This document shows, piece after piece, positions 2,763 through 62,140 of a stretch of 64,000 bases of DNA. This DNA is from an uncultured Verrucomicrobiae bacterium. GTDB taxonomy: Bacteria > Verrucomicrobiota > Verrucomicrobiia > Chthoniobacterales > UBA10450. Location of the stretch: assembly GCA_963815455.1 (NCBI GenBank), contig CAWFGO010000001.1, positions 480,001-544,000 on the forward strand, written 5' to 3'. The number at the start of each line of letters is the position of its first letter. Position 1 is the stretch's first letter. A program made the translations under genes and the position numbers. The notes below the pieces were generated by a model that did not search any database, was not told the origin of the DNA, and saw only the letters and a list, made by a program, of their open reading frames with translations.

Positions 2763-4694
2763 TTAGACCTCTACGCGCGCGCCGAGTTCTACCACCCCGT
2801 TCGGTGGCAGGCAGAAGTATGATGTCGCGTCCCCGGCGTTTCGGGTCATCCAGGCAAACACCGAGCCGCGCCAGGAGGAGAGACCCAGTTTGCGGGTGGC
2901 AAGGATTGTTTCCCGTCCGATAAAGTAGGTTACTCGCATGGCATCGAATTGAAGACCGGTTTCCTTCACGCTCGCCAGCGCCGCCGGAACATCAGGTTTT
3001 TCCATAAACCCAAAATGAAGTTGTATCCGCCAGAATCCCCCATCCAATTTTTCAATGGCAACCCGATCTCGGGCATTTACCAGATAAGGAACCTCCGCCG
3101 TTTGCACTGTAAGTAACACGACTTGTTGGTGGAGCACTTTGTTGTGCTTAAGATTGTGGAGCAAGGCCAGAGGCGTTCCATTGCGATTGCCCGACATATA
3201 GACGGCGGTTCCCGGAACCCGGCGGATGCTCGTTTTTAGTTCGGGCAGAAAGTCCTCCAGGGGAATACAGATCTCGCTAAGCCGGCTCCGAAGAACGCGG
3301 CGCCCTTTTCGCCACGTCAGCATGAAGAACAGAATCACAGCAGAAACGAGCAAAGGGAACCAACCGCCATGAGCGATCTTCAGCATGTTCGCGCCGAAGA
3401 ATGCGAGGTCGATCGCAATAAAGAACACGGCGATTGCAAACGCTGCCGGCGCGGGCCAGTGCCAGCGATAACGAGCCACGACATAAAACAAAATCGTGGT
3501 AATCAACATCGTGGTCGTGATCGCCACGCCGTAGGCAGCGGCGAGATTGCTCGAAGTGCGAAAACCGAGCACCAGCGCGATGCAGGAAAGCATCAGGCCC
3601 CAGTTCACCACCGGCACGTAGATTTGTCCGATGATGCGCTCGGAGGTGTAATTGACTTTGAGCCGCGGGCTATAACCGAGCTGGATCGCCTGCATCGTTA
3701 AAGAAAAAGCGCCGCTGATAATCGCCTGCGACGCAATGACGGCCGCGGCTGTCGCGAGCACCACCATGGGATACAGTGCCCATGAAGGCGCCATCCGAAA
3801 AAAGGGATTTACCGCAGACTCCGGCTCAACCAGGAGAAGCGCGCCCTGCCCAAAGTAATTCAATGTCAACGCCGGGAGAACAACAGCGAACCAGGTCAAT
3901 CGAATGGGCGCAGTGCCAAAATGACCGATGTCGGCGTAGAGCGCTTCGCCACCAGTAACAACCAGGAAAACCGCGCCCAGCACGACAAAACCCCGTCCAC
4001 CATTGTTCACAAAAAATTCGAAGCCATGCAACGGATTCACTGCCGCCAGCACTTCCGGCGCACGAACAATTTGGTGAAGCCCGAGGAAACTGATCGTCAC
4101 AAACCATAACATCGTGACAGGTCCAAATACCGTGCCGACTCCCGTTGTTCCGCGCGATTGAAAGAAAAAAAGCGCAATCAAAATCGCAATCGCAATCGGC
4201 ACGACATATGGATCAAACAGCGGCGTAGCGATATGCAGTCCTTCGACAGCTCCCATCACTGAGATTGCCGGGGTGATCATCCCATCGGCGTACAGCAGTG
4301 CAGCTCCAAACAATCCGAGCGGGAAGAGGTATTTTCCTCGCCTGGCTACATCGCTTACCAGCGTCGCCAGGGCAAGGATACCGCCTTCGCCTCGATTATC
4401 CGCCCGAAGAATCAGGGTCAGATACTTGAGGGAAATGACCAGGAGAAGAGACCAAAGGATGAGTGATAACACACCAAGCACATTGGCGTGGGTCGGGGGA
4501 ACAGAGTGTTGCCCATAAAAGCATTCGCGCAGAGCGTACAGCGGGCTGGTCCCGATATCGCCATAGACGATCCCCAAGCTGGCAATGCATAAAAAGAGAA
4601 GCCGATTCCTGTGCTTCGCGGAACCAATAAAAGCAGGCGCGTGTCGGCCCGCGCCAGCGACGGGGGGAGCTAAGGTTGGAGGCCCGGAATTCAA
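2763..4694 (-). CDS. kup: KUP/HAK/KT potassium transporter
   Basis: GIVYGDIGTSPLYA, GEGG, TGGEALYAD.GHF, GQIYVP signature motifs. Confidence 0.97.
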   Translation of the reverse strand: MNSGPPTLAPPVAGAGRHAPAFIGSAKHRNRLLFLCIASLGIVYGDIGTSPLYALRECFYGQHSVPPTHANVLGVLSLILWSLLLVISLKYLTLILRADNRGEGGILALATLVSDVARRGKYLFPLGLFGAALLYADGMITPAISVMGAVEGLHIATPLFDPYVVPIAIAILIALFFFQSRGTTGVGTVFGPVTMLWFVTISFLGLHQIVRAPEVLAAVNPLHGFEFFVNNGGRGFVVLGAVFLVVTGGEALYADIGHFGTAPIRLTWFAVVLPALTLNYFGQGALLLVEPESAVNPFFRMAPSWALYPMVVLATAAAVIASQAIISGAFSLTMQAIQLGYSPRLKVNYTSERIIGQIYVPVVNWGLMLSCIALVLGFRTSSNLAAAYGVAITTTMLITTILFYVVARYRWHWPAPAAFAIAVFFIAIDLAFFGANMLKIAHGGWFPLLVSAVILFFMLTWRKGRRVLRSRLSEICIPLEDFLPELKTSIRRVPGTAVYMSGNRNGTPLALLHNLKHNKVLHQQVVLLTVQTAEVPYLVNARDRVAIEKLDGGFWRIQLHFGFMEKPDVPAALASVKETGLQFDAMRVTYFIGRETILATRKLGLSSWRGSVFAWMTRNAGDATSYFCLPPNGVVELGARVEV

Positions 4695-4733
4695 CGTTGT
4701 TGAGGAGCTTAGACTTGGCGGAAATCCAGAGTA

Positions 4734-4750
4734 GTTGAAATGGTATTAAA
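4734..4750 (-). promoter_or_regulatory. Putative KdpE-type box upstream of kup
   Basis: Minus strand TTTAAT-ACCAT-TTCAAC, hexamers spaced 11 bp. Confidence 0.45.
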
Positions 4751-4781
4751 ATTCAAAGGCATCATTTCCCGTGAGAGTTGA

Positions 4782-5933
4782 ATGGGCTACTGTGCTCCCG
4801 TGCTGGAAACATCCAGTTCGCGCCGCATCGAGCGATTATCCCCTGGGGGGTTGTCCGGCCAAACGACCTTCGCTCCACTGAAAGAGTACGCCATTGCGGT
4901 CGCCGGCGTGGCTGCGCTCACCATCGCTTGTTGGCTGTTAACACCGCTAATCGGTTACGGGGCCATTTCTCTGATCTTTCTCCTGGGCGTCCTGCTTGCA
5001 GGAATGATTCTTAATCGAGGGCCGGTCCTGCTGATTGCAGCACTCAGTGCCCTCTCATGGAATTTCCTGTTCATTCCGCCGCTGTTTACCCTGCACATCG
5101 CGAAATTTGAGGATGCGTTGACCTTTGCGACCTACTTCATTGTCGCGATCGCTGTGGGAAGTTTGACTTCTCAACTGAAGGCGAGGGAGCATCTGGCAGC
5201 TCAGGTCCAGCTGGCCCAGGAATCCGAGCGGCTTCGCAAGACCTTGCTCGATTGCGTTTCACATGAACTGAAAACTCCCCTTGCCGCCATTGCCGCGGCC
5301 AGTCAGGAACTGGTCCGGCTCGCGCCAACGACCCACGACAAGGCGCCGGTCGAACAGCTGGCCCGCGAAATCCGCGACGCCTCCCGCAGGCTCAATCGCG
5401 TCGTCAACAATCTCCTCGATATGAATCGACTCGAGAGCGGAGTGATCCGGCCAGAACAAGAATGGTGCGAAGTCCATGAATTATTGCAATCGGCAGTGGA
5501 AATCGAGCGCGAATCAGTCAATGGCCGCGACGTTCGAGTCGATGTCGCGGAAAACACTCCGCTGGCCCTGGTCGATCACGCCTTGATTGAACAGGCTGTC
5601 GCGAAACTCATAGCCAATGCGGCGAGTCATGCCCCGGCCCGGGCGCCGATCGAGATCGATGCCGAGTATAGCGGAGAAGAGTTGCTCATCTCGGTCAGCG
5701 ATCGCGGGCCGGGACTTCCACCAGGCTCGTCTGACCGATTGTTCGAGAAATTCTACCGCGGCGACAACCGCAAAACCGGTGGCCTCGGGCTGGGATTATC
5801 GATCGCTCGAGGATTCGTCGAGGCGCATGGCGGCACACTGGTGGCTGAGAACCGGGATGGCGGCGGGGCGCGATTCACCATCCGTTTGCCGGTACGGATA
5901 ACAGATGCAGACGCATTGGAGTCTTCATCATGA
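4782..5933 (+). CDS. Short KdpD-like sensor kinase (DUF4118 4-TM + HisKA + HATPase; no KdpD/Usp/GAF domains)
   Basis: WNFLFIPP.FT TM motif, VSHELKTPL H-box, DRGPG and GLGLGLSI boxes. Confidence 0.9.
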   Translation: MGYCAPVLETSSSRRIERLSPGGLSGQTTFAPLKEYAIAVAGVAALTIACWLLTPLIGYGAISLIFLLGVLLAGMILNRGPVLLIAALSALSWNFLFIPPLFTLHIAKFEDALTFATYFIVAIAVGSLTSQLKAREHLAAQVQLAQESERLRKTLLDCVSHELKTPLAAIAAASQELVRLAPTTHDKAPVEQLAREIRDASRRLNRVVNNLLDMNRLESGVIRPEQEWCEVHELLQSAVEIERESVNGRDVRVDVAENTPLALVDHALIEQAVAKLIANAASHAPARAPIEIDAEYSGEELLISVSDRGPGLPPGSSDRLFEKFYRGDNRKTGGLGLGLSIARGFVEAHGGTLVAENRDGGGARFTIRLPVRITDADALESSS

Positions 5934-44816: not shown

Positions 44817-44874
44817 CTCTCCTGGTAATTTTCGTTTTGCATTGCGGCGCCAAAACCCGCACAGTTTTCTCCCA

Positions 44875-45913
44875 ATGAAGATCGCCTTGGACGCCATGGG
44901 CGGCGATTTTGGCCCGCCGAGTCTCGTGGCCGGCGCCGTAATGGCGCTGCGTGAATACCACCATATTCACAAGCTTTTCCTGGTCGGAGATACCGCCCAG
45001 ATCGAGGCCGAACTCAAGAAGCAGCAATGTAACGATGGCCGGATCGACATCGTCCATTCAACCCAGGTCGTGGATATGAGCGATCGCGCCTGGTCGGCCG
45101 TTCGCCGAAAAAAAGATTCATCCGTAAGCCGGGCAGTCGATCTCGTTAAGCGCGGCGACGCGGATGCAATCGTCAGCGCCGGACACACCGGCGCCGCGGT
45201 CGCAGCGAGCATGATCAAGTTGCGCACGCTGGAGGGAATCGATCGTCCAGGAATCGCGGCGGTTCTTCCCACTGAAACGAATGTCTTTGTTCTGATCGAT
45301 GCCGGGGCAAACATCGATGCACGCCCCGAGCATCTCGTTCAATATGCGTTCATGGGAACGGTTTATTCGCGACATGTGCTCGGGTACAAGAATCCAACGG
45401 TCGGCCTGGTCTCACTCGGCGAGGAAGACGTGAAAGGCAACGAGATGACGAAGGAAGTTTTCAAAATGTTAAAGAAAAGCTCCCTCAACTTTGTCGGTAA
45501 CATCGAGGGACGCCATCTGTTCGAGGATCCGGTTGAAGTCGTGGTCTGTGACGGTTTCGTGGGCAATGTAATCCTTAAGACATGCGAATCGATCTCGGTG
45601 GCGATTTTCAAATGGCTCAAGCACGAATTGACTGCGCACTCCTCTGCGCAAGGCCGGCGCGTTTCTGGCCAAAGACGCGTTCCTGACGATCAAGGACAAA
45701 ACAAATTACGAGGAATACGGCGGGAGCCCCCTTCTGGGGGTAAACGGAATCTGCATTATCGCGCACGGCTCCAGTACGCCCCTAGCCATCAAGAATGCAT
45801 TACGTGTCGCGGCCGAATCGATTGAACAGCAGGTCAATCCGCATATCGTCGAGGAGATTCGCCGTTACAATGAAAAAGCAGCCCCGCTCGAGCCCGCGCT
45901 CCCGGTCCGATAA
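44875..45913 (+). CDS. plsX: Phosphate acyltransferase (apparent frameshift near 45632)
   Basis: IALDAMGGD, SAGHTGA, DAGAN, DGFVGN; YGGSPLLGVNG..IIAHG in a shifted frame. Confidence 0.95.
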
Positions 45914-49612: not shown

Positions 49613-50623
49613 TCACGGCATCTGCCCGAGGTGCTTCTGGGCGGTCGGCTTCGAGAGTAGTTGCATGTCCGCATCGACCATGATCCGCACAAGCTCCTTA
49701 AATCGCACCTTCGGTTCCCAGCCGAGAAGCTTCTTCGCTTTGGAGGCGTCGCCAATGAGCAGATCGACTTCGGCCGGCCGCTCATAGCGCGGATCGTGTT
49801 TGACGTATTTTTCCCAATCAAGATCGACATGGGCGAAAGCAGCTTCGGCAAATTCGCGCACGGTGCGCGTTTCGCCGGTCGCAATGACAAATCTTCACCT
49901 TGTCGTGCTGCAAAATTCGCCACATCGCCTCGACATATTCCGGCGCGTAACCCCAGTCGCGTTTGGCTTCCAGATTCCCCAGAAATAATTCATTTTGCAG
50001 ACCTTGCTTGATCGCTGCGACTGCCCGCGAGATTTTGCGCGTCACAAAAGTTTCGCCCCGACGCGGGCTTTCGTGATTGAACAGGATTCCGTTGCTTGCG
50101 TGTAGTCCGTAACTTTCCCGGTAATTCACCGTCGCCCAGTAGGCGAAAACTTTCGCCACCCCATACGGACTGCGCGGCCAAAACGGCGTCTTCTCATTTT
50201 GTGGAACCGTCTGGGCTTTGCCGAACATCTCACTGCTTGAGGCTTGATAAAATCGGGAACGAATTCCGGTCTCGCGAATCGCCTCCAGAATCCGAATCGT
50301 GCCGACACCGGAAATATCTGAGGTGTATTCGGGAATATCGAAACTCACCCGCACGTGGCTCTGCGCGCCGAGATGATAAATCTCGTCCGGCTTCAGATCG
50401 TAAAGCAGCTTTACAAGGTTTACTGAATCGCTCAGATCGCCGTAATGCAAAAACATCTTCACCCCGTTGATGTGCGGGTCGGCGTAAAGGTGGTCGATGC
50501 GCGCCGTGTTGAATGTGCTGGCCCGGCGAATGATGCCGTGCACTTCATAGCCTTTCTCGATAACAGATCGGCCAGATAACTTCCGTCCTGCCCGGTGATC
50601 CCGGTGATGAGTGCTTTCTTCAT
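49613..50623 (-). CDS. gmd: GDP-mannose 4,6-dehydratase (apparent frameshifts near 50563 and 49893)
   Basis: [53 protein letters not shown]. Confidence 0.95.
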
Positions 50624-51914: not shown

Positions 51915-52625
51915 GTAGTAAGAAAGTACAACTTTAAGAGCTGAGTCTGAAATATGAAAGTGGCTGTAGGTTAAGATCTTCAGCCAAGAGAGTTTCAGTT
52001 ATCAAAGAATCTCTGGTCCGGCAGCAGCCGGACCGGAACAGATTGATCAAGCTACAAAGAGCGCATCATGGATGCCTTGGTGCCAATAGGCGATGAAGGA
52101 CGTGGTAAGCTGCGATAAGTCACGGAGAGCGGCAAACACGCTTTGACCCGTGAATTTCCGAATGGGATAACCTGAGCGAGGTAATACTTGCTCGAGTTCC
52201 TGTGAATACATAGCAGGAACATCGCGAAACCCGGTGAAGTGAAACATCTCAGTAACCGGAGGAACAGAAATCGAAAGAGATTCCGTCAGTAGTGGCGAGC
52301 GAAAGCGGAAGAGACCAAACCGGTCAATTTATTGACCGGGGTTGTAGGAGCCCGACGTGGTAGTGCAACGATTAGATGAAGCGAATGGAAAATCGCTCCA
52401 TAGAGGGTGACAGGCCCGTAATCGAAAATCCGCGCACGCCTAGGGATTTCCTGAGTAATACGATGCACGTGAAACTTCGTATGAATCTGCGCCGACCACG
52501 GCGTAAGTCTAAATACTAATTGGCGACCGATAGTGAACCAGTACCGCGAGGGAAAGGTGAAAAGAACCGCTGTGAGCGGAGTGAAATAGTACCTGAAATG
52601 ATGTGCTTACAAGGTGTCAAAGCCC

Positions 52626-52906
52626 AGCACTTTCTGATTCCATGGAAGACATGTTTTACGTCTACGTGCTAAAGAATCCGAAAAGTGCGGAGCTATACTA
52701 CGGCTTTAGTAGCAACCTGCGGCAGCGCTTCGATAGTGCATCAAAAGATGTCGAAGCATGCTGGATGGAAGTTAGTCTACTATGAAGCGTATGCCGATGA
52801 GCAGGATGCTCGCGATCGCGAACGGATGCTTAAGGATTACGGAGCCGCGAGAGGTCATCTCAAGAAACGTATAGCGCGAAGCACTTCCAAGGGGCCGGAA
52901 AGTGCT
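52626..52906 (+). mobile_element. Intervening sequence in the 23S helix 25 loop
   Basis: About 281 nt between ...GTCAAAGCCC and GGGTGATGGCGTGCCTTTTG; terminal stem CCCAGCACTTTCTG/CGGAAAGTGCTGGG. Confidence 0.9.
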
Positions 52907-52912
52907 GGGTGA
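52651..52912 (+). CDS. Small GIY-YIG nuclease encoded in the IVS (one-base frameshift near 52735)
   Basis: MFYVYVLKNPKSAELYYGFSSNLRQRF / HQKMSKHAGWKLVYYEAYADEQDARDRERMLK; the GIY-YIG Y..Y.G..R..H..E pattern is complete. Confidence 0.85.
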
Positions 52913-54033
52913 TGGCGTGCCTTTTGCTTAATGAGTCTGCGAGTTATTATCAGTGGCGAGCCTAAGGCGTTCTGCGCTGGAGGCGAAGCGAAAGCGAGTC
53001 CGAAATGGGCGAACATAGTCGCTGGTAGTAGACCCGAAGCCGAGGTGATCTACCCATGAGCAGGATGAAGATTGCTTAACCGCAATTGAAGGACCGAACC
53101 CGTGAAGGTTGAAAATTTCTGGGATGACTTGTGGGTAGGAGCGAAAGACTAATCAAACCCCGTGATAGCTGGTTCTCCCCGAAATAGCTTGAGGGCTAGC
53201 CTCGTGTGCTGACCTGCGGAGGTAGAGCACTGGATGAACTAGGGCCCATACCAGGGTACCGAACTCAATCAAACTCCGAATGCCGCAGGGTGTAACACGG
53301 GAGTCAGTGCGTGAGGGATAAGCTTCACGCGCGAGAGGCAAACATGCCAGACCAGCAGCTAAGGTGCCCAAATACCGTTCAGTGGAAAGGATGTGAGGTT
53401 GCATAGACAGTGAGGATGTTGGCTTAGAGGCAGCCATCATTTAAACAGTGCGTAATAGCTGACTCATCGAGCGATCTCGCGCCGATAATGATTGGCGATA
53501 AGCGGTATACCGAAGCTCTGGAAGACATTTTGGTTCGCCAGAATGGATTGGTAGGGGAGCGTTCTGAATGCATCGAAGCAGAAGGGGAACCTACTGTGGA
53601 GCGTTCAGAAGTGAGAATGCAGACATGAGTAGCGATAAGCCAGGTTAAATTCCTGGCCGCCGTAAACCCAAGGTTTCCTGGGGAAGGTTCGTCCTCCCAG
53701 GGTTAGTCGGGACCTAAGTCGAGGCCGAAGGGCGTAGACGATGGAAAGCAGGTTCAATATTCCTGCACCGGCTGTGGTTAAGCTTGGTTGTGACATATCA
53801 GTGGAGACGGGCCGTCGATTGAAAGTGGCGGTCTGCTCGCAAGAGCAAGGACGTGGAGGCCTCGGCTGAAGCGGATCTGTTAAAACTTGAATCAAGAAAA
53901 GCACTTAAATGTTCCCACGGTTGCCCGTACCGTAATCCGACACAGGTGGGTGAGTAGAGTATACTCAGGCGCGTGAGTGAAACCTCGTTAAGGAACTCGG
54001 CAATCTAGCCCCGTAACTTCGGAAGAAGGGGTG

Positions 54034-54196
54034 CCCCGCTGCATTTTGCGAGAGCGCAAAACAACAGTGAAATTATATTGCCAATCCCAAATTACAAGAT
54101 CCAGTAAATCTGAGACGAAGGCTAATGTTTCGGGATCTTGGAGTTTGGCTATTGGGATTCATGCATTTTGAGCCACTGCTCTAAAATGCAGCGGGG
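54034..54196 (+). other. Extended helix 63 / ORF-less IVS in 23S
   Basis: 14-bp perfect stem CCCCGCTGCATTTT/AAAATGCAGCGGGG enclosing an AT-richer hairpin, between GAAGAAGGGGTG and TCGCAGTGAAA. Confidence 0.8.
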
Positions 54197-54341
54197 TCGC
54201 AGTGAAATGGGTCAACCGACTGTTTAACAAAAACACAGCACTCTGCTAAGTCGTTAAGACGACGTATAGGGTGTGACACGTGACCAATGCGGAAAGATTA
54301 TGGTAAGACGTTAGCCGCAAGGCGAAGCGTTGAACCGAAGT

Positions 54342-54421
<80 letters not shown>

Positions 54422-54929
54422 GTGTAACGAGTTGACCGCTGTCTCAACGAGGAGCTCAGCGAAGTTGTAATGGCGGTGAAGATGCCGCCTACCCGCAGTA
54501 GGACGGAAAGACCCTATGCACCTTTACTACACGCTGTTACTGTTGTTTCGGTTTCGATGCTTAGCGTAAGTGGAAGGCTACGAAGCGGCCCTTTTGGGGG
54601 TCGCAGAGCCGCCAATGAAACACCACCCTTCGGTACTGGAATAACTAACCTTTGCCCGTATATCCGGGAAAGGGACACTGGCAGCCGGCTAGTTTTACTG
54701 GGGCGGTATCCTCCCAAAGAGTAACGGAGGAGTACGAAGGTTGGCTCAACCTGGTTGGCAATCAGGTGACGAGTATATGGATATAAGCCAGCTTAACTGT
54801 GAGAGACACACCTCGAGCAGATACGAAAGTAGGTCCAAGTGATCCGGTGGTTGAATGTGGAATTGCCATCGCTCAACGGACAAAAGGTACGCTAGGGATA
54901 ACAGGCTGATCCTGCCCAAGAGCTCATAT

Positions 54930-54996
<67 letters not shown>

Positions 54997-55011
54997 CCGG
55001 CTGTTCGCCGG

Positions 55012-55045
<34 letters not shown>

Positions 55046-55186
55046 CGAGACAGTTCGGTCCTTATCCACTGTGGGCGCAGGAGATTTGAGGGGTTCAGAC
55101 CTTAGTACGAGAGGACCGGGTCTGACGAACCGCTGGTGTTCCAGTTGTCGTGTCAACGGCAGTGCTGGGTAGCTATGTTCGGAAAG

Positions 55187-55217
<31 letters not shown>

Positions 55218-55600
55218 CTATCCCAAGATGAGATCTCCCTGAAGGGTCGTGGTAGACCACCACGTTGATAGGTCTCCGGTGTAAGTGCAGTAATGTATTC
55301 AGCTGAGAGATACTAATAACCCGTTCGGCTTGATCTTTTACTTTTCTGTTAACGCTGCGTTCCGGTGAAAATCGGGACAGCAGAATGGGAAATGAAAGAT
55401 CTCAAACAAAACGAAGCCTTAAGCGTGCGACTTTCCAAAAACTCCTGTATGTAGATATCAGAGAACAGCGACAGAATTTTGAGAAGATGACGTGATGTTT
55501 GATCTAAATGAATGCGCGCAATCGCGAGCGAAATAAATCTGACATCGTCCATCAAACCTCAAACATGCCAGAAGCGAGCGGCGAAGCATTCGCGGTTCGC

Positions 55601-55717
55601 TTCTGGTGATAATAGCGCAGTGGCACCACCCGTTCCCATTCCGAACACGGCAGTGAAACGCTGCAGCCCCGATGGTAGTACGGCGATAGGCTGTGCGAGA
55701 GTAGGACGTCGCCAGAA
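55601..55717 (+). rRNA. rrf: 5S rRNA
   Basis: TTCTGGTG...CACCCGTTCCCATTCCGAACACGG.AGTGAA...GATGGTAGT...GAGAGTAGG..GTCGCCAGAA. Confidence 0.97.
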
Positions 55718-56049: not shown

Positions 56050-56721
56050 TCACGCATCATCTCGATCGCGTAGTACAAAACAATTAAGGTGGTGTTCGAT
56101 AAGATCTGAACGAGTCGAACCCACCTTGATGCTCCGATAGATGTTCTGCAATCCCTCAAGAAGATCGAACGACCTAGGAAACGCGAGGCGAAGATCGGTG
56201 GAGTGTTCAAAACACGACGATAACCCCTCGATAACTTCGTCGAGCTTCACTTCAAAGTCGGGTGGCAATGAAGGTGTCCGCGACGACGCCAGGAATGATC
56301 GAACTGCACTTCGTGCTCTTCGAAAAAATCTGTGATCGATCCGTCCCGCGATGTCGACTGGAATCTTACACTCATTCTTCAGAAAGAGAATAAACCTGAA
56401 AACCTCCCCTCGAACACATCCCACAAGCCGATCAGCACCATGTCTGACTTGAAATCGAATAGAATGCTTCTGAACGAATGTCCCGACAACCACACCAATC
56501 GCAAGACCGATCGGCAACACCAGCAAACTTGCGATAAGATTTTGAGCGAATGCAATATTCCAAATCAACGCGGTACCACCGGCGATAGTCGCAAAAATTA
56601 TGACCAGCAACGACCATGTGAGTGTAAGAAGGGCGAGTTGGGCTACAAGCGGAATAAGGCGCCGATAATGGTGATATTCAAAGCCGCGATTCGACGAAAA
56701 CCCGCGGCGTGGCAACTTCAT
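56050..56721 (-). CDS. Hypothetical 2-TM membrane protein, last gene of the MTase operon
   Basis: ATG at 56721 overlaps the vsr stop (ATGA); two long hydrophobic segments then a soluble domain. Confidence 0.65.
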   Translation of the reverse strand: MKLPRRGFSSNRGFEYHHYRRLIPLVAQLALLTLTWSLLVIIFATIAGGTALIWNIAFAQNLIASLLVLPIGLAIGVVVGTFVQKHSIRFQVRHGADRLVGCVRGEVFRFILFLKNECKIPVDIAGRIDHRFFRRARSAVRSFLASSRTPSLPPDFEVKLDEVIEGLSSCFEHSTDLRLAFPRSFDLLEGLQNIYRSIKVGSTRSDLIEHHLNCFVLRDRDDA

Positions 56722-57155
56722 AAAGAAACGGCGTTGCGGCGGCGACGTGCCTTGTCTATTCGCGCGCTGATCTTCAACCAAAAACGAGGATGCAAATCGC
56801 ACTCCCAAACGCGCACAACGTTCCAGCCAGCGTTACGTAATGCTCGTGTCACCTTACGGTCCCGCAGTTGATTCCCTGCTAACTTGGCTCGCCACCACTT
56901 CGCCCGACTTTTCGGCAGCGACGCATGTTTCGGTTTGGGGCAGCCATGCCAAAAACATCCATCGACAAACACAGCAACTCTTTCGCGTGGAAAAATAAAG
57001 TCAGGTTTTCCAAATAGTTGGACCTTTCGACGCCATCCAGTGATTCGATACTTTCGGAACAATCTAATCATGCGCAGTTCGGTATCGCGATTCTCACTGC
57101 TCCGAATCCGCGACATTATTTCGGATCGGCGTTGCGGTGAGTAAATGTCACTCAA
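56718..57155 (-). CDS. vsr: Very-short-patch repair endonuclease
   Basis: D......RS.IMSRI....T..E, GKPD, FVDGCFWHGC, RD, GW.V.RVWEC. Confidence 0.95.
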   Translation of the reverse strand: MSDIYSPQRRSEIMSRIRSSENRDTELRMIRLFRKYRITGWRRKVQLFGKPDFIFPRERVAVFVDGCFWHGCPKPKHASLPKSRAKWWRAKLAGNQLRDRKVTRALRNAGWNVVRVWECDLHPRFWLKISARIDKARRRRNAVSL

Positions 57156-57160
57156 GCTTA

Positions 57161-58216
57161 TCAGCGCGTTTGAGATCGGTGAGCGATAATGGCCTTTGCT
57201 ATTTCAGCGGCAAAACGGACGGGAACTGCGTTACCGATCTGACTCGCGACTTCACTCAAAGAACCGCCGTAAAAAATGTAGTCGTCGGTAAAACTCTGCA
57301 AGCGCGCCGCTTCTCGCAACGAAATCGCGCGATGTTGTACGGGATGACCATACCGGCCATTCGAAATACTGTGACAGCGACATGTGAGCGTCGGCGCTGG
57401 AAAGTCCCATCGCATCCGACCGTATACGTCAGAATGCCCCTCATAGTCCCCGCTATGACAGGGAAGATGAAAGTGTTTGGGCCACTGTATTCGACCGCCT
57501 CCATCTTTGGGAGTTACACTGAGTCTCGCCAAGTTCGTTTCAGATAGTCCTGCGGCCCGATGATTTGGAACAGTCTTGTGCGTCTCACCTGCCGCCAATT
57601 TCGGCAAATTGCCAATAGCATCCCGGACCGTCCGGTATTTTCGGCGCGCGTTCGGGCCGTGACTTGGTGTAGGCAAGCTGGGGGACGGCGCTCGGCTTGC
57701 AATAACGATCCATCTCTGTCGATTCTGCGGCACTCCAAAAGACTTCGCGTTGAGTCGGCCCTCAGCCCACTCGTAACCATTACATTTAAGCGCTTTTAGA
57801 AACCGGTGATAAGTGCTGTTTCCAGCCACTCGGGCGATCCCCGGGACATTTTCGATAACGACGTATTGCGGCTGAAACGACGAGATGAAAACCGTAAGAG
57901 CGCTAAGCAAGCTCCGCTCAGCTTCATAATCACCTTCGCGGCGCTGCTGCGTAAACGGACGGCAAGGGGCGCAAGCCATAAATACAAGTGCTTCAGCAGC
58001 GGTATGCTTAATTAAGGGACGTAATTGTTTGATCGTCAGGTCCTGCATATCAACTTCCAGGAATCGAGCTGGCTTATTGTTCCGTTCGTAAGTCCACCGA
58101 CATGCTCCATTCGCGTCGATTCCAGCAATTACGTCAATTCCAGCGTCCAGGAACCCTCGCGTGAAACCGCCAGCGCCACAGAAAAAATCAACCGCTCTAA
58201 GTTTCTGCACTCGCAT
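57161..58216 (-). CDS. DNA (cytosine-5) methyltransferase
   Basis: DFFCGAGG (I), CAPC (IV), ENV (VI), Q.R.R (VIII), R.IS.REAARLQSF (IX), QIGNAVP (X). Confidence 0.95.
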   Translation of the reverse strand: MRVQKLRAVDFFCGAGGFTRGFLDAGIDVIAGIDANGACRWTYERNNKPARFLEVDMQDLTIKQLRPLIKHTAAEALVFMACAPCRPFTQQRREGDYEAERSLLSALTVFISSFQPQYVVIENVPGIARVAGNSTYHRFLKALKCNGYEWAEGRLNAKSFGVPQNRQRWIVIASRAPSPSLPTPSHGPNARRKYRTVRDAIGNLPKLAAGETHKTVPNHRAAGLSETNLARLSVTPKDGGGRIQWPKHFHLPCHSGDYEGHSDVYGRMRWDFPAPTLTCRCHSISNGRYGHPVQHRAISLREAARLQSFTDDYIFYGGSLSEVASQIGNAVPVRFAAEIAKAIIAHRSQTR

Positions 58217-59312
58217 CGGCTGGCAGGGATTTTAATATTGCGTCAACAAATTGATCGCTGTCAAGACTTGGCAAGCCTGGTCGGCCAGAAATTTGCGCGA
58301 ACGCCCAAGAAACACGCTCGCGAAATGGGCTATCAACGGAGGCGACCCGATACCATTCGACATTCGGATCCTCGTGAAGAGAGATCGCAGCCATGCCTAA
58401 CAATTGCAAGCTTTTCAGATCTACCGCCATCGCCGGAATAATTTTCGGCAACTCCGGGACGCAGAAAACGCCGTTTACCTGATCCGCGTTTAGGAAAATC
58501 GGTAGACGTTGCTTCAATCTTTTCTTTCCGGCCTGCCCCAGATTCGTTGCATCCAGGAACCGTTGCGGCGATTCGCATCGCGCGACCAAGGCATGCTCTA
58601 AACATCCGCCTCGATTGCGCACCAGGTCACAAGAAGGCGAAAGGACGACAAGAAAATCGCTGGGATCAAATCCTTCGGCAGCGCAACGACGAAGTATATC
58701 CCCGGTCATTAGATCGGGCGATAGACTGGGATAAACATATTGTTCCCACGGCCGAAGAGCAGTTTCGGCTTGCTGCACAATGTCCATCGACGCGGCTATG
58801 CGGCGTCTTGTGATTCGTCCTATAAGCTCACCCCTGGTCTCGGGAGCGCTGTCCTGCCAAATAACCTCGCACACGTCGCGAAGTGAATTGCCCATTGATT
58901 GTGCAACTTCCCGGCGAACTCCGTGAAGTACCTCGACGTGAGGCAAAAATTCTCCAAGGCTGTGTACTACTTGCTGATCGCTTTCGGCTGAGCCTGTTTT
59001 CGCATGCAATCGAATGAATGGATGCTTTGCCAGTTCCTCGTGGCTAGGTTGAGGCTTCGCAGTATATATGATTAGCGGACAAAAATGTCGCTCCCATATC
59101 TTCTTTCCAACTTTATCCCCTTCATTTTGATCTAGATTTGGATCCGCGAAAATGTCGATTACCACTACGTCGGGCATCTCCTCTTCAACTCGATCAAAGG
59201 CAGTGTCGAACATATTGTGCGTTATCGTGGTGCTTGATGCGAATTTCGCCTCAATCGCAAGTTTCAGATTCTCCGCTGGTACCGTTTGATCATCGATGAT
59301 AAGAATTTTCAT
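58197..59312 (-). CDS. Receiver-domain protein with an uncharacterised C-terminal domain
   Basis: MKILIIDD, VVVID, IIYTA, K; C-terminal TGDIL...VLSPSCDL...SPFRE...GRPGLP. Confidence 0.85.
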   Translation of the reverse strand: MKILIIDDQTVPAENLKLAIEAKFASSTTITHNMFDTAFDRVEEEMPDVVVIDIFADPNLDQNEGDKVGKKIWERHFCPLIIYTAKPQPSHEELAKHPFIRLHAKTGSAESDQQVVHSLGEFLPHVEVLHGVRREVAQSMGNSLRDVCEVIWQDSAPETRGELIGRITRRRIAASMDIVQQAETALRPWEQYVYPSLSPDLMTGDILRRCAAEGFDPSDFLVVLSPSCDLVRNRGGCLEHALVARCESPQRFLDATNLGQAGKKRLKQRLPIFLNADQVNGVFCVPELPKIIPAMAVDLKSLQLLGMAAISLHEDPNVEWYRVASVDSPFRERVSWAFAQISGRPGLPSLDSDQFVDAILKSLPADASAET

Positions 59313-61465
59313 CGCGATTGCTCGACAGCCGGTAATTCGAACCTAAATGTCGCGCCACCCAATTTTCCCGGAGCTTGAACGGCTATTGTGCCTTTGTTGC
59401 CCTCGACCAATTCTCCCGCCACGGTTAAACCCATCCCTGATCCATTTGGTCTACGCGTAACTCCCGCGTTAAAGATACGGTTCTTGTCTTCTGATGCGAT
59501 ACCTGGCCCCGAATCGCTGATTTCACAAACAACCATGCCGTCCCGTCGGGAAGAACTAATTTTCAGCCGTCGCCGATCGGGCTTGCTGTGATGAAGCCAG
59601 TAGACAGCATTATCGACGAGGTTGTATACGATTGGATACAATTCACCTGGGTCAATACGAACCTCACCGTCGCGAATAGCACATTCGACCGCCACGCGGC
59701 CTTGCTTGAGCGGCTCTTGCAGCGTCTGCAAACAAGCATCGACAACCTCTTTCAGGTTTGCGTTCCGTTTTCCACGCTGAAACGCGCGACTGGCCAAAGG
59801 TCGGAATCTTTCTGCCAATCTTTGCAGCGCGGTGACGGCGTCCTTCGCTAACGCGAGCCTCTTCTCTAAGACGGCGCGATCCGCTAACTTGTTCTCTAAC
59901 CATTCGCGAACGCAATTGACGAACGCATCGAGGGCACCACAGTTGTTGCCGACCTCGTGGACAAGCATTTGCGAAATGGTGCCAATCGTCGCCAGCCGAC
60001 TGTAATAAAAAAATTGCCTCTCGATTTGCTGGCGCGCTTTCTCTGCCTTTTTTGAAAACTGAGTCAGGAGCGGTAACACGTCGCTAGCCGTCCCATTTTC
60101 CGAAACGATCTCTTCGGCATCACTCAGCAGCTTTTCAGGTGAAAGCTCTTCAAACAATTCTCTCAACTGCGGTTCTTCAGCCTCCTGGTCTTGATCACGT
60201 TCCAGTTCGAGTCGGCTAATCGCGTACCTGAGCAAACGTTCAAATTCTTGCACCTCGTCGTTCCTCGCGAGCCTTTCACGATCACTTGTGTCTTCAATCC
60301 GCGGGTTTACATCGGCAGAAACCGATACGTAGCCGACCATTTGACTCGTGCTTAGCCGCGTCCCCACCTTGCTGACGCGTCGAAGATCTAACCCAAGCCA
60401 ATCGCGATTGTTTTCCGATTTTGGCAAAACAAGGACACCGTCCCGATATAAAGAAAGACCCTTGAATGCGCGAATTTGCCGGCGCATTAGTGACCTACGG
60501 ATTTCAAACCGAGACTCCGCATCAGCCATGCTCTTTTGATCCAGGTCCCAAACTCGAATTTCGAAGGAAAACGGGCCGCACGTTGGTTGCTTCTTCAAAG
60601 GTATTCGATCTTGTTTGGGCAGAGTATCGTTTATATCGCGCTGAACGATCGCCCAATCGAAGCTCCTAGGAACAGACCGTCCTTTCGCGCGAAACGGATG
60701 AAACGTGTAGTTGTATTTAAGCGTTCCCGCCCGACTGAAACTTCCCTTCAAACTATACGGTGGATGCTTAAGAAATTCCGAGGTTTGAATTTTCGTTCGT
60801 GTAGGAACAGCACCGGGCGGAGTAAGAAAAATGTCAAAATCGGAGATCGCCTCGAATGGTGAGGTGAGTCTCGACAATGCCTCACTAAGTTCCTCAACTT
60901 CTTGCTCGCGCCAACGAGAATTGAGACTGCGAATCGTGATGGATGTGCCGGTCCCGTTCCGAAATTCAGTCCCGATGTACTTTCCCCGCAACGCGCAGCA
61001 TGCTTCGACAGACGAAGCCGCCGAAAGTCCAGACCAGTCAACGTCGACTTGCCACGCGCGATCCTCCTTTGCCTTTGTCACCAATGTCATTGATTGTCCT
61101 AGCCGAGCAGCAGAAAGACGCCCCAAACCCTTTGCACCGGTCGTGCGCCGAGTCTTATTTCCTTTGTGTGTGCGTGGATGTTCCTGGCGGAACGGAGTAG
61201 CGACCATGCACCAGACGTCGTCGATGATTTCCTTCGTCATGCCCTGCCCGTTATCAGCCACTTCGAGCGTTAACTTGCCACCAACGGACCCGAATCTCAC
61301 TTCGACGTGTGTTGCAAACGCATCGTACGAATTCTTCACGAGTTCAATAACAGCCACGACATCGCTCGTGACGAGCTCGGAACCGAGAGCCTGAAAGACA
61401 CGCGGATGCATCTTAAACGGCACCAGCTTGGCGTCCGCGCTCGTCGACTCGTCAGGCATTAGCAA
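59309..61465 (-). CDS. MORC/MutL-type GHKL ATPase fused to a histidine kinase
   Basis: N-terminal ELVKNSYDA, DNGQGM, GAKGLGR; central LYRDG...DWLGLD...TSDRE; C-terminal LVHEV, NLVDNA, DSGPGI, GSGMGL. Confidence 0.9.
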   Translation of the reverse strand: MLMPDESTSADAKLVPFKMHPRVFQALGSELVTSDVVAVIELVKNSYDAFATHVEVRFGSVGGKLTLEVADNGQGMTKEIIDDVWCMVATPFRQEHPRTHKGNKTRRTTGAKGLGRLSAARLGQSMTLVTKAKEDRAWQVDVDWSGLSAASSVEACCALRGKYIGTEFRNGTGTSITIRSLNSRWREQEVEELSEALSRLTSPFEAISDFDIFLTPPGAVPTRTKIQTSEFLKHPPYSLKGSFSRAGTLKYNYTFHPFRAKGRSVPRSFDWAIVQRDINDTLPKQDRIPLKKQPTCGPFSFEIRVWDLDQKSMADAESRFEIRRSLMRRQIRAFKGLSLYRDGVLVLPKSENNRDWLGLDLRRVSKVGTRLSTSQMVGYVSVSADVNPRIEDTSDRERLARNDEVQEFERLLRYAISRLELERDQDQEAEEPQLRELFEELSPEKLLSDAEEIVSENGTASDVLPLLTQFSKKAEKARQQIERQFFYYSRLATIGTISQMLVHEVGNNCGALDAFVNCVREWLENKLADRAVLEKRLALAKDAVTALQRLAERFRPLASRAFQRGKRNANLKEVVDACLQTLQEPLKQGRVAVECAIRDGEVRIDPGELYPIVYNLVDNAVYWLHHSKPDRRRLKISSSRRDGMVVCEISDSGPGIASEDKNRIFNAGVTRRPNGSGMGLTVAGELVEGNKGTIAVQAPGKLGGATFRFELPAVEQSR

Positions 61466-61626: not shown

Positions 61627-62140
61627 ATGCTGACAAGTAAGAAAGTAATAGGCGCGATAAACGAGCAGATTGGATACGAGTTCAGCGCTTCGATGCAGTA
61701 TTACGCGATCGCCGCGCATTTCGCGGCTGAGGCTTTGCCGCAGTTGTCGCAGCATTTTTTCCAGCAAGCCGAAGAAGAGAAAGGTCACGCGCTGCGATTC
61801 ATCAAGTACGTGGTCGATGCCGGCGGACGCGTGGTGATTCCGGCAATCGACGCGCCGAGGTCCAATTTCAAAACTCCTAAAGACGCGGTGAAGCTTTCTC
61901 TTGATCAGGAAATTCACGTGACGAAACAGATCAATGCGTCTCGTTGATCTGGCCCGTAAGGAAAACGACCACATCACGATCAATTTTCTCCAGTGGTTCC
62001 TGACCGAGCAGCTCGAGGAAGTTTCCTCGATGGACAATTTGCTCAAGATCGTCGAAAGGGCGGGAACCGATCTGCTCCAGGCCGATGAATACCTCGCCCG
62101 CGTTGGTCTCCGGACGATGCCGGAGCCACCCAAGGAATAG
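61627..62140 (+). CDS. ftnA: Non-heme ferritin (apparent frameshift near 61938)
   Basis: NEQI..E..AS..Y, QA.EE..HA, E..VT..I, FLQWF..EQ.EE. Confidence 0.92.

Follow-up and report, generated by a model that had tools for sequence, protein, structure and literature searches.

With moderate confidence, we interpret the insert at the tip of helix 25 in this 23S rRNA gene as a minimal mobile GIY-YIG cassette, which lives as an intervening sequence (IVS) and is probably excised by RNase III. The cassette plan consists of about 250-320 bp with 12-bp terminal inverted repeats and one stand-alone GIY-YIG gene. As far as sequence comparisons can show it, the anatomy of the cassette is established, as are the ends common to gene-bearing and gene-less copies, the occurrence at many rRNA helix tips on the sense strand and the existence of one derived copy outside rRNA. 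Tentatively, and with somewhat less than even confidence, we propose that such 0.3-kb cassettes are autonomous with the stand-alone GIY-YIG nuclease as their sole enzyme, that a large class of rRNA IVSs derives from their terminal repeats, that the nuclease drives helix-tip replacement between lineages as well as jumps to new helices and start codons, and that miniature derivatives account for the gene-less hairpins of 16S, 23S and RNase P RNA. Here, the window is the whole stretch of 64,000 nucleotides that was analysed, G-numbers denote genomes of the family (G000 is the source genome), L-numbers related loci and g-numbers genera. The family tallies take in three genomes flagged as unpublished (G652, G007 and G155); no claim depends singly on any of them.

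The source assembly (3.6 Mb, 7 contigs) contains a single 23S rRNA gene, which was located by cmscan with the LSU_rRNA_bacteria model. The 16S rRNA gene lies on another contig and the rRNA genes are thus unlinked, as has been reported for the Ca. Udaeobacter group (bioRxiv 10.1101/705046). The related loci were assigned to Verrucomicrobiota, Chthoniobacterales and Ca. Udaeobacter. Relative to the covariance model, positions 52623-52912 are an insertion, and alignment to the E. coli 23S rRNA places it between E. coli positions 540 and 553 in helix 25. A first-pass annotation had described about 281 nt in the helix-25 loop, closed by a stem of about 14 bp; loop and stem stand, and the sizes were refined to 287 bp and 15 bp. 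The element proper replaces the apex of the helix and is bounded by a perfect 12-bp inverted repeat. Its terminal stem, including two G-U pairs (52622-52636 with 52896-52910), lengthens to about 25 bp with two interruptions, and the region 52605-52930, rRNA flanks included, folds with a z of -4.1. About 28 nt of the insert fall outside the ORF. For positions 52560-52980, Rfam returned the LSU model only and no group I or group II intron at E <= 10, which agrees with the earlier view that a ribozyme core is missing. The features are as follows:

52045-55337, plus strand: host 23S rRNA gene, single copy, unlinked from 16S
52622-52648, plus strand: extended closing stem, 5' strand, 15 bp plus a further 10 or so; ATG 52642 lies within it; candidate RNase III site
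52623-52909, plus strand: cassette replacing the helix-25 apex (E. coli 540-553), 287 bp
52623-52634, plus strand: left terminal inverted repeat, 12 bp; 5' arm of the closing stem; same 12 bp on the gene-less 16S hairpin
52642-52736, plus strand: GIY-YIG ORF part 1, start ATG 52642 or 52651; YVY, YYG, catalytic Arg
52733-52737, plus strand: one extra base (frameshift), outside any homopolymer; from alignment and a relative's contig
52738-52912, plus strand: GIY-YIG ORF part 2; His, YYEAY, metal-binding Glu; stop TGA 52910-52912
52884-52910, plus strand: extended closing stem, 3' strand
52898-52909, plus strand: right terminal inverted repeat, 12 bp; contains the codons of the four C-terminal residues (ESAG)
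54033-54197, plus strand: gene-less 165-nt hairpin in the helix-63 region, related terminal repeat
55602-55717, plus strand: 5S rRNA gene

Past the 5S rRNA gene, a minus-strand island (56718-61465) encodes a Vsr endonuclease, a C5 methyltransferase, a receiver-like protein and a GHKL/histidine-kinase ATPase.

The assignment of the ORF to the GIY-YIG family was confirmed. Its two halves match the Pfam model at E 8e-5 (above the cut-off) and E 0.015 (below the cut-off), and three intact relatives match at E 3e-11 to 1e-8; in these relatives GIY-YIG is the sole Pfam domain above the cut-off and no known transposase domain was detected. A protein search yielded 252 homologous clusters at E <= 1e-10 among 289 candidates, with identities of 70-99% among the 120 homologues listed. 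The residues Y3, Y5, Y16, Y17, G18, R26 and H30 are invariant in 37 aligned homologues, and E57 is conserved in at least 90% of them. As noticed in the first-pass annotation, the sense-strand ORF of about 86 aa ends with its final codons in the 3' stem arm, and its stop codon is rRNA sequence. This TGA falls beyond the terminal repeat, in nucleotides that are also present in empty alleles. The C-terminal ESAG is found in 118 of the 120 homologues among the matches listed. This ending was considered as proof of a helix-25 location and dropped, because the terminal repeat encodes it and non-rRNA copies share it.

The predicted structure (pLDDT 79) has seven disordered residues at its end. Foldseek gave no structure match at E 0.001 or better and ranked UPF0213 BH0048 (E 0.003), Slx1 and HIGLE before I-TevI (E 0.3); these best fold matches suggest that the protein resembles the Slx1/UPF0213 fold rather than an intron homing enzyme. 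A sequence search of the PDB produced a chance match only (E 0.14), and a search of the ESM Atlas retrieved GIY-YIG clusters only. The protein possesses neither a C-terminal Asn nor a second domain. The lack of both is a mark of the stand-alone Slx1-like group, and a C-terminal Asn marks the UvrC/homing lineage (PMC1564403). The stand-alone Slx1-like and UPF0213 proteins (PDB 1zg2, 1ywl) likewise consist of a minimal domain without this Asn; however, they are treated as housekeeping proteins or as being of unknown function (PMC1564403), whereas the cassette described here holds nothing but the GIY-YIG gene between its repeats.

The insert is genuine and no chimera of this assembly, because the same element occupies the same site in nine other family genomes and seven metagenome contigs. 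The assembly does contain 0.17 frameshifts per kb (28 in 165 kb, affecting 21 of 131 genes when compared with the proteins of a relative), which could point to an assembly artefact. However, this explanation has next to no probability and is already refuted by the independent assemblies, which share element and junctions; the 252 protein clusters contradict it as well, and so does the lack of private single-base indels in the window's 23S rRNA gene in comparison with 34 relatives, a count that says nothing on the error rate. The plsX, gmd and ferritin ORFs of the window (44842-45825, 49818-50543 and 61627-61947) are shorter than their Pfam models, probably due to assembly frameshifts. Public sequencing runs were searched with a query containing rRNA flanks, and the runs were therefore picked up through these flanks. 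Three of the four runs compared as contigs have no cover within the insert, and run contigs bridging past it hold different letters in between, which are empty alleles of other organisms. One RNA run gave a single 257-nt contig that is about 83% alike (depth 13.6); it speaks neither for expression nor for excision.

The ORF comprises 86 or 89 codons, depending on whether it starts at ATG 52651 or ATG 52642, and is split across two frames. Alignment locates the extra base at about 52733-52737, and the contig of a relative is one base shorter at 52737. Originally, the frameshift was taken for a possible read error. This is less likely because the frameshift rate of the assembly predicts 0.046 frameshifts per 270-nt ORF, whereas the ORF is broken in five of the 16 other helix-25 copies (G126, G721, G691, G740 and L145), in one case within an A run and hence perhaps by error. 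Judged from these numbers, real inactivation is likely. The copy in the source genome was probably inactivated recently, since its dN/dS in comparison with the nearest relative is 0.22. The codon substitutions show purifying selection on the cassette protein: among 17 elements the median dN/dS is 0.15 with a range of 0.07-0.32 (computed for the 131 of 136 pairs in which dS is defined; the deleted copy L229 and the last 9 codons were left out).

The first-pass annotation regarded the insert as hidden in an rRNA stem. According to the sequence comparisons, the closing stem is the element's own terminal repeat and no extension of the rRNA, because the same repeat occurs on gene-less copies, on sisters at other helices and on a copy at a start codon. 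An inverted repeat beginning with CCC-A/C-GCAC brackets the gene at 83 of 160 related loci (68 distinct), the motif being counted if at least 11 of 14 bases were complementary, and it is present at rRNA, tRNA 5' ends and other places alike. Repeat pairs were detected in 52 of 261 family genomes, as compared to three in the reversed control. The pairs listed are mostly gene-less, with lengths of 55-60 bp (intergenic, including 57 bp) or about 100 bp (rRNA helices), and gene-less copies are much commoner than gene-bearing ones. The source genome itself carries a 101-bp gene-less hairpin in its 16S rRNA gene (G000:C5:165396-165496), which was placed at a helix tip near position 200 and whose ends are identical over 12 bp. 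In the helix-63 region, G743, G166 and L149 have a GIY-YIG cassette where the source genome has a gene-less hairpin; relatives have either 16-20 nt or, in many cases, hairpins of 100-185 nt, some with heptamer repeats. At the helix-25 tip, six of the first 201 family genomes contain gene-less long inserts. The 21-nt tip of L046 and L292 (G157), with the right terminal repeat only, is likely a relic after loss of the element. Moreover, L336, L344 and L350 are gene-less hairpins with the same terminal repeat in what we take to be RNase P RNA.

Among the 160 related loci, 41 are located inside rRNA and four in the 16S leader; all 45 lie on the sense strand, and the single opposite-strand match is found outside rRNA. 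The rRNA sites include the 23S helices 25, 63, 68, about 2630 and 98 as well as three 16S regions. The clade of the window's element comprises 21 rows (support 95 in a FastTree-only tree with few columns, from which five frameshifted copies were dropped), of which 19 are located in 23S rRNA genes at helices 25, 63, 68 and 98. L139, which lies outside rRNA, nests among the helix-25 copies and encodes a protein that is 84% identical to that of G047. It is inserted exactly at a start codon, changing ATG to GTG, and is flanked by TGAC on both sides; the same site is also filled in G735 and G738. The 25 empty alleles of this site nearly all have ATG, and in the filled allele the last G of the repeat is followed by TG. 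At helix 25 and at the start-codon site alike, the triplet after the repeat is TGA, which provides the stop codon of the ORF.

Apart from L139, 4-bp direct repeats resembling target duplications flank 11 of 45 non-rRNA copies, all distant relatives (3.7 in shuffles, maximum 9), and one of 17 rRNA copies. At helix 25 no target-site duplication was found, and in the family sample no direct repeat of 2-8 bp accompanies any of the 24 repeat pairs classed as non-rRNA. The counts of 0/24 and 1/17 indicate that cut-and-paste is no general route. As judged from the alignments, an element at a helix tip takes the place of the apex, and copies may be found at helix tips because they survive there and not because these sites are targeted. 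The phage and plasmid collections contained no match to the element, and thus no vehicle was found.

These observations bear on the site-specific homing that the first-pass annotation had considered. Classical homing, in which the enzyme would recognise uninterrupted helix-25 DNA and cause a double-strand break whose repair copies the insert in, appears quite unlikely to us. It would account for the same site being filled in five genera with sister species empty, and the broken copies and the relic with the right repeat only resemble a cycle of gain, decay and loss. Moreover, all four elements of one subtype have the lower-stem variant that is the rarer one among short alleles (4 of 50), as co-conversion would give. 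However, the empty apex is hypervariable, close relatives reside at helices 63, 68 and 98 and at a start codon outside rRNA rather than at a single conserved allelic target, homing has no need of gene-less copies with identical ends, and filled alleles amount to only about one tenth of those scored. The protein of 86 aa (84-89 aa among the copies) has no added DNA-binding domain, scores 16.5 bits against TIGR01453 with its cut-off of 56 and lacks the C-terminal Asn that marks the UvrC/homing lineage (PMC1564403). I-TevI and the TIGR01453 homing endonucleases share with it the catalytic GIY-YIG residues and fold and the insertion in a conserved RNA gene, but the element described here has no ribozyme, one third of the length and many target sites. 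The GIY-YIG inserts of CPR bacteria, which are scattered across several poorly conserved sites, are also regarded as being outside homing (Tsurumaki et al. 2024, PMC11270868).

Matches to the insert were found in 12 of 355 family genomes including the source genome, ten at helix 25 and two (G735 and G738) at an intergenic site. The ten helix-25 genomes are spread over the genera g1, g8, g10, g20 and g22. A short helix 25 with many sequence variants is present in 103 of the 355 genomes; most others are without an assembled 23S rRNA gene. The coexistence of filled and empty sites anticipated by the first-pass annotation is thereby documented. A phylum-wide sample of 400 genomes contained no further helix-25 copy of this clade, and its five non-own matches are 47-51% identical and lie outside rRNA. 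On a 23S tree of 72 rows (without L064, a duplicate of L224, L143 with its short flank, and L146 and L283, in which helix 25 was not located), the filled hosts are scattered with 11 changes, seven of them forced by well-supported branches; an rpoC tree of 21 hand-chosen rows requires eight changes. In agreement with the predicted patchiness, the AU test rejects a single clade of filled hosts (p 1e-12 for 23S, p 4e-15 for rpoC). The scatter of hosts alone fits gains or losses.

Element and host distances are uncorrelated in Mantel tests (rho 0.13, p 0.14 for 23S; rho 0.14, p 0.15 for rpoC), and so are the synonymous distances of element and rpoC (Spearman 0.17, p 0.33). Two pairs have elements that are closer than their hosts: for G721 and G126 the synonymous distance is 0.35 for the element and 0.69 for rpoC (p 1e-6), and for G000 and G059 it is 0.36 and 0.60 (p 6e-4). 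The splicing-independent selfish element that was originally suspected is supported by the analysis. A single gain in the ancestor of the family, followed by vertical inheritance and many losses and with no ongoing lateral exchange at helix 25, is nevertheless an explanation to be weighed, although we consider it rather unlikely. Indeed, genus monophyly is compatible with the nine genome-assigned elements alone (p 0.23 and 0.13), G740 and G743 have sister elements and similar rpoC genes, and the divergence ranges of element and rpoC are similar. However, the sister hosts G059 and G126 differ by a pN of 0.003 in rpoC, and yet their elements (pN 0.12) are as different as any pair; monophyly of these two elements is rejected in the 17-row tree (p 0.0035). 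Moreover, host and element clades imposed on each other were rejected in five of six AU tests, the clades having been named after the trees were seen. Near-identical elements in distant hosts were not seen in this set. The 23S flanks are mosaic, rRNA contigs assembled from short reads may be chimeras or wrongly binned, and co-conversion tracts are inseparable from both; G691 has two rpoC genes. Taken together, these comparisons make lateral exchange at helix 25 likely, and old rather than recent, with old presence and repeated loss explaining part of the pattern. Vertical inheritance is compatible with the identity of the cassette and would remove the homing-like step only.

For the mobile cassette that we favour, the following mechanism can be envisaged. 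In the transcript, the terminal repeats would pair and lengthen helix 25, thereby folding the insert out of the rRNA. RNase III would most likely remove it without ligation, as in classical IVSs; this prediction is derived from known IVS biology (PMC4990558) and from the presence of an RNase III gene. The protein would be made rarely, mainly from precursor RNA and at a low level rather than at rRNA level, because the stem takes in the start codon, and because any cut inside the stem would separate the excised RNA from its stop codon farther downstream. Since Slx1 and SsnA are its closest characterised relatives, the nuclease would be expected to cut hairpin, branched or single-stranded DNA and to start recombination. 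Movement could then occur in two ways. First, the helix-25 tip may be replaced via recombination with incoming DNA in a homing-like manner, and this exchange would take place between lineages because there is one 23S gene per genome. Second, rare jumps to new sites may occur, which would also seed the gene-less miniature copies.

The nearest tested model for such an activity is SsnA with its flanking hairpin. SsnA cuts single-stranded DNA beside its own flanking hairpin and depends on Tyr, Tyr and Glu for catalysis; an origin from insertion sequences has been raised, and the arrangement NTS-ssnA-NTS was likened to insertion sequences (Chenal et al. 2025, PMC11893778). Like the cassette protein, the Ssn proteins (cd10448) are single-domain GIY-YIG enzymes of about 90 aa (below 150 aa) encoded between hairpin repeats, and the catalytic residues are matched by conserved residues of the cassette protein. 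However, the NTS/SRM motif is absent within 500 bp of the insert, as searched with a strict SRM pattern that also missed the repeats around the REP-flanked GIY-YIG genes of the source genome, and the insert has one long-range inverted repeat instead of separate hairpins. Moreover, the main text of the Ssn paper makes no mention of rRNA (PMC11893778). The two REP-flanked genes (G000 C2:522238-522456 and C3:443690-443911), located between REP-like hairpin repeats, are probably of the Ssn type; in the tree, they form a separate clade that does not include the cassette protein.

SsnA also lends itself to a different explanation. Host recombination or an unlinked transposase might spread the cassette as a passenger or with a domesticated nuclease, the protein being kept for another reason such as Ssn-like cutting of incoming single-stranded DNA. 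We consider this unlikely. SsnA restricts transformation in Neisseria (PMC11893778), gene-less IVSs move laterally without any enzyme (PMC4990558), and gene-less copies far exceed gene-bearing ones. However, the gene is absent from most of the scored relatives and disrupted in several copies, a pattern that agrees better with a selfish element than with a host function; there is space in the cassette for the nuclease gene only, and selection acts on this gene at every site type.

Tsurumaki et al. (2024), who cite Brown et al. (2015), describe 30 GIY-YIG ORFs in CPR rRNA inserts, 15 in 16S and 15 in 23S, none of them in introns (PMC11270868). Thus, GIY-YIG genes in non-intron rRNA inserts are already published for CPR bacteria, and the arrangement is less unprecedented than the first-pass annotation had implied. 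Both sets have in common a GIY-YIG ORF in an rRNA insert, and in neither set is this insert a group I or group II intron; the hosts differ, here being Verrucomicrobiota. In the available text of the CPR account, terminal repeats, derivatives lacking the gene, tests of selection and copies outside rRNA do not feature, and no single site shows an expansion (PMC11270868); in the present set, by contrast, one clade has expanded at helix 25. A literature search covering titles, abstract starts and few subscription papers returned no repeat-bounded single-gene GIY-YIG cassettes, miniature copies or inserts of this kind from Verrucomicrobiota. What the present analysis adds is the clade from Verrucomicrobiota, together with the population tests.

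Classical 23S IVSs reside in helices 9, 25 and 45 of organisms such as Salmonella, Leptospira and Coxiella and are excised by RNase III; their ORFs code for S23p four-helix-bundle proteins, and the Coxiella ORF is decaying and apparently not made (PMC4990558). The insert resembles them in its position at a variable helix tip closed by a terminal complementary stem, in its sense ORF, in its sporadic presence among relatives (10 filled and 103 short in 355 genomes) and in the lateral transfer proposed. It differs in that the ORF encodes a nuclease under purifying selection and in that the stem is a repeat common to non-rRNA copies. Bacterial insertion sequences carry terminal inverted repeats and have MITE derivatives, and IS1272 is said to insert by replacing a repeat. 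The cassettes share with insertion sequences and MITEs the terminal inverted repeats common to gene-less miniature copies, the 4-bp direct repeats in distant relatives and the replacement of hairpin tips, but they measure about 290 bp and have no DDE, HUH or serine transposase.

Lateral transfer of rRNA IVSs has been inferred, and we know of no enzyme that moves them. The cassette family may explain how some of them arise and spread. Since one family of abundant soil bacteria has alleles at several helices that are filled, broken, gene-less or empty, along with a selected nuclease and a copy outside rRNA, the question of origin and movement becomes testable. In addition, many small GIY-YIG proteins that form a large group now called 'hypothetical' would gain a function, and new hairpin- or ssDNA-specific nucleases might be among them.

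Several related arrangements were observed. In the source genome, small GIY-YIG genes are located right behind tRNA-Pro (twice), tRNA-Met and tmRNA (G000 C3:553128-553331, C3:491045-491242, C1:174056-174265 and C5:75712-75921), and two of them precede a duplicate of the tRNA 3' part. L053, L055, L056 and L057 contain related GIY-YIG genes whose inverted repeats differ and are longer; these genes are followed in three cases by what is presumably the 3' end of an integron integrase gene. At L083, L092, L157, L158 and L079, the cassettes directly adjoin a sequence that we take to be DnaA-box-like, with a TGTG duplication. The tRNA 5'-end cassettes L091, L100, L103, L119, L212 and L217 duplicate 7-10 bases and thereby rebuild the tRNA start. 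Finally, the cultured Lagierella massiliensis (L127) carries two cassettes in one 23S rRNA gene, at 2913-3158 and 4559-4801, in helices 25 and 68.
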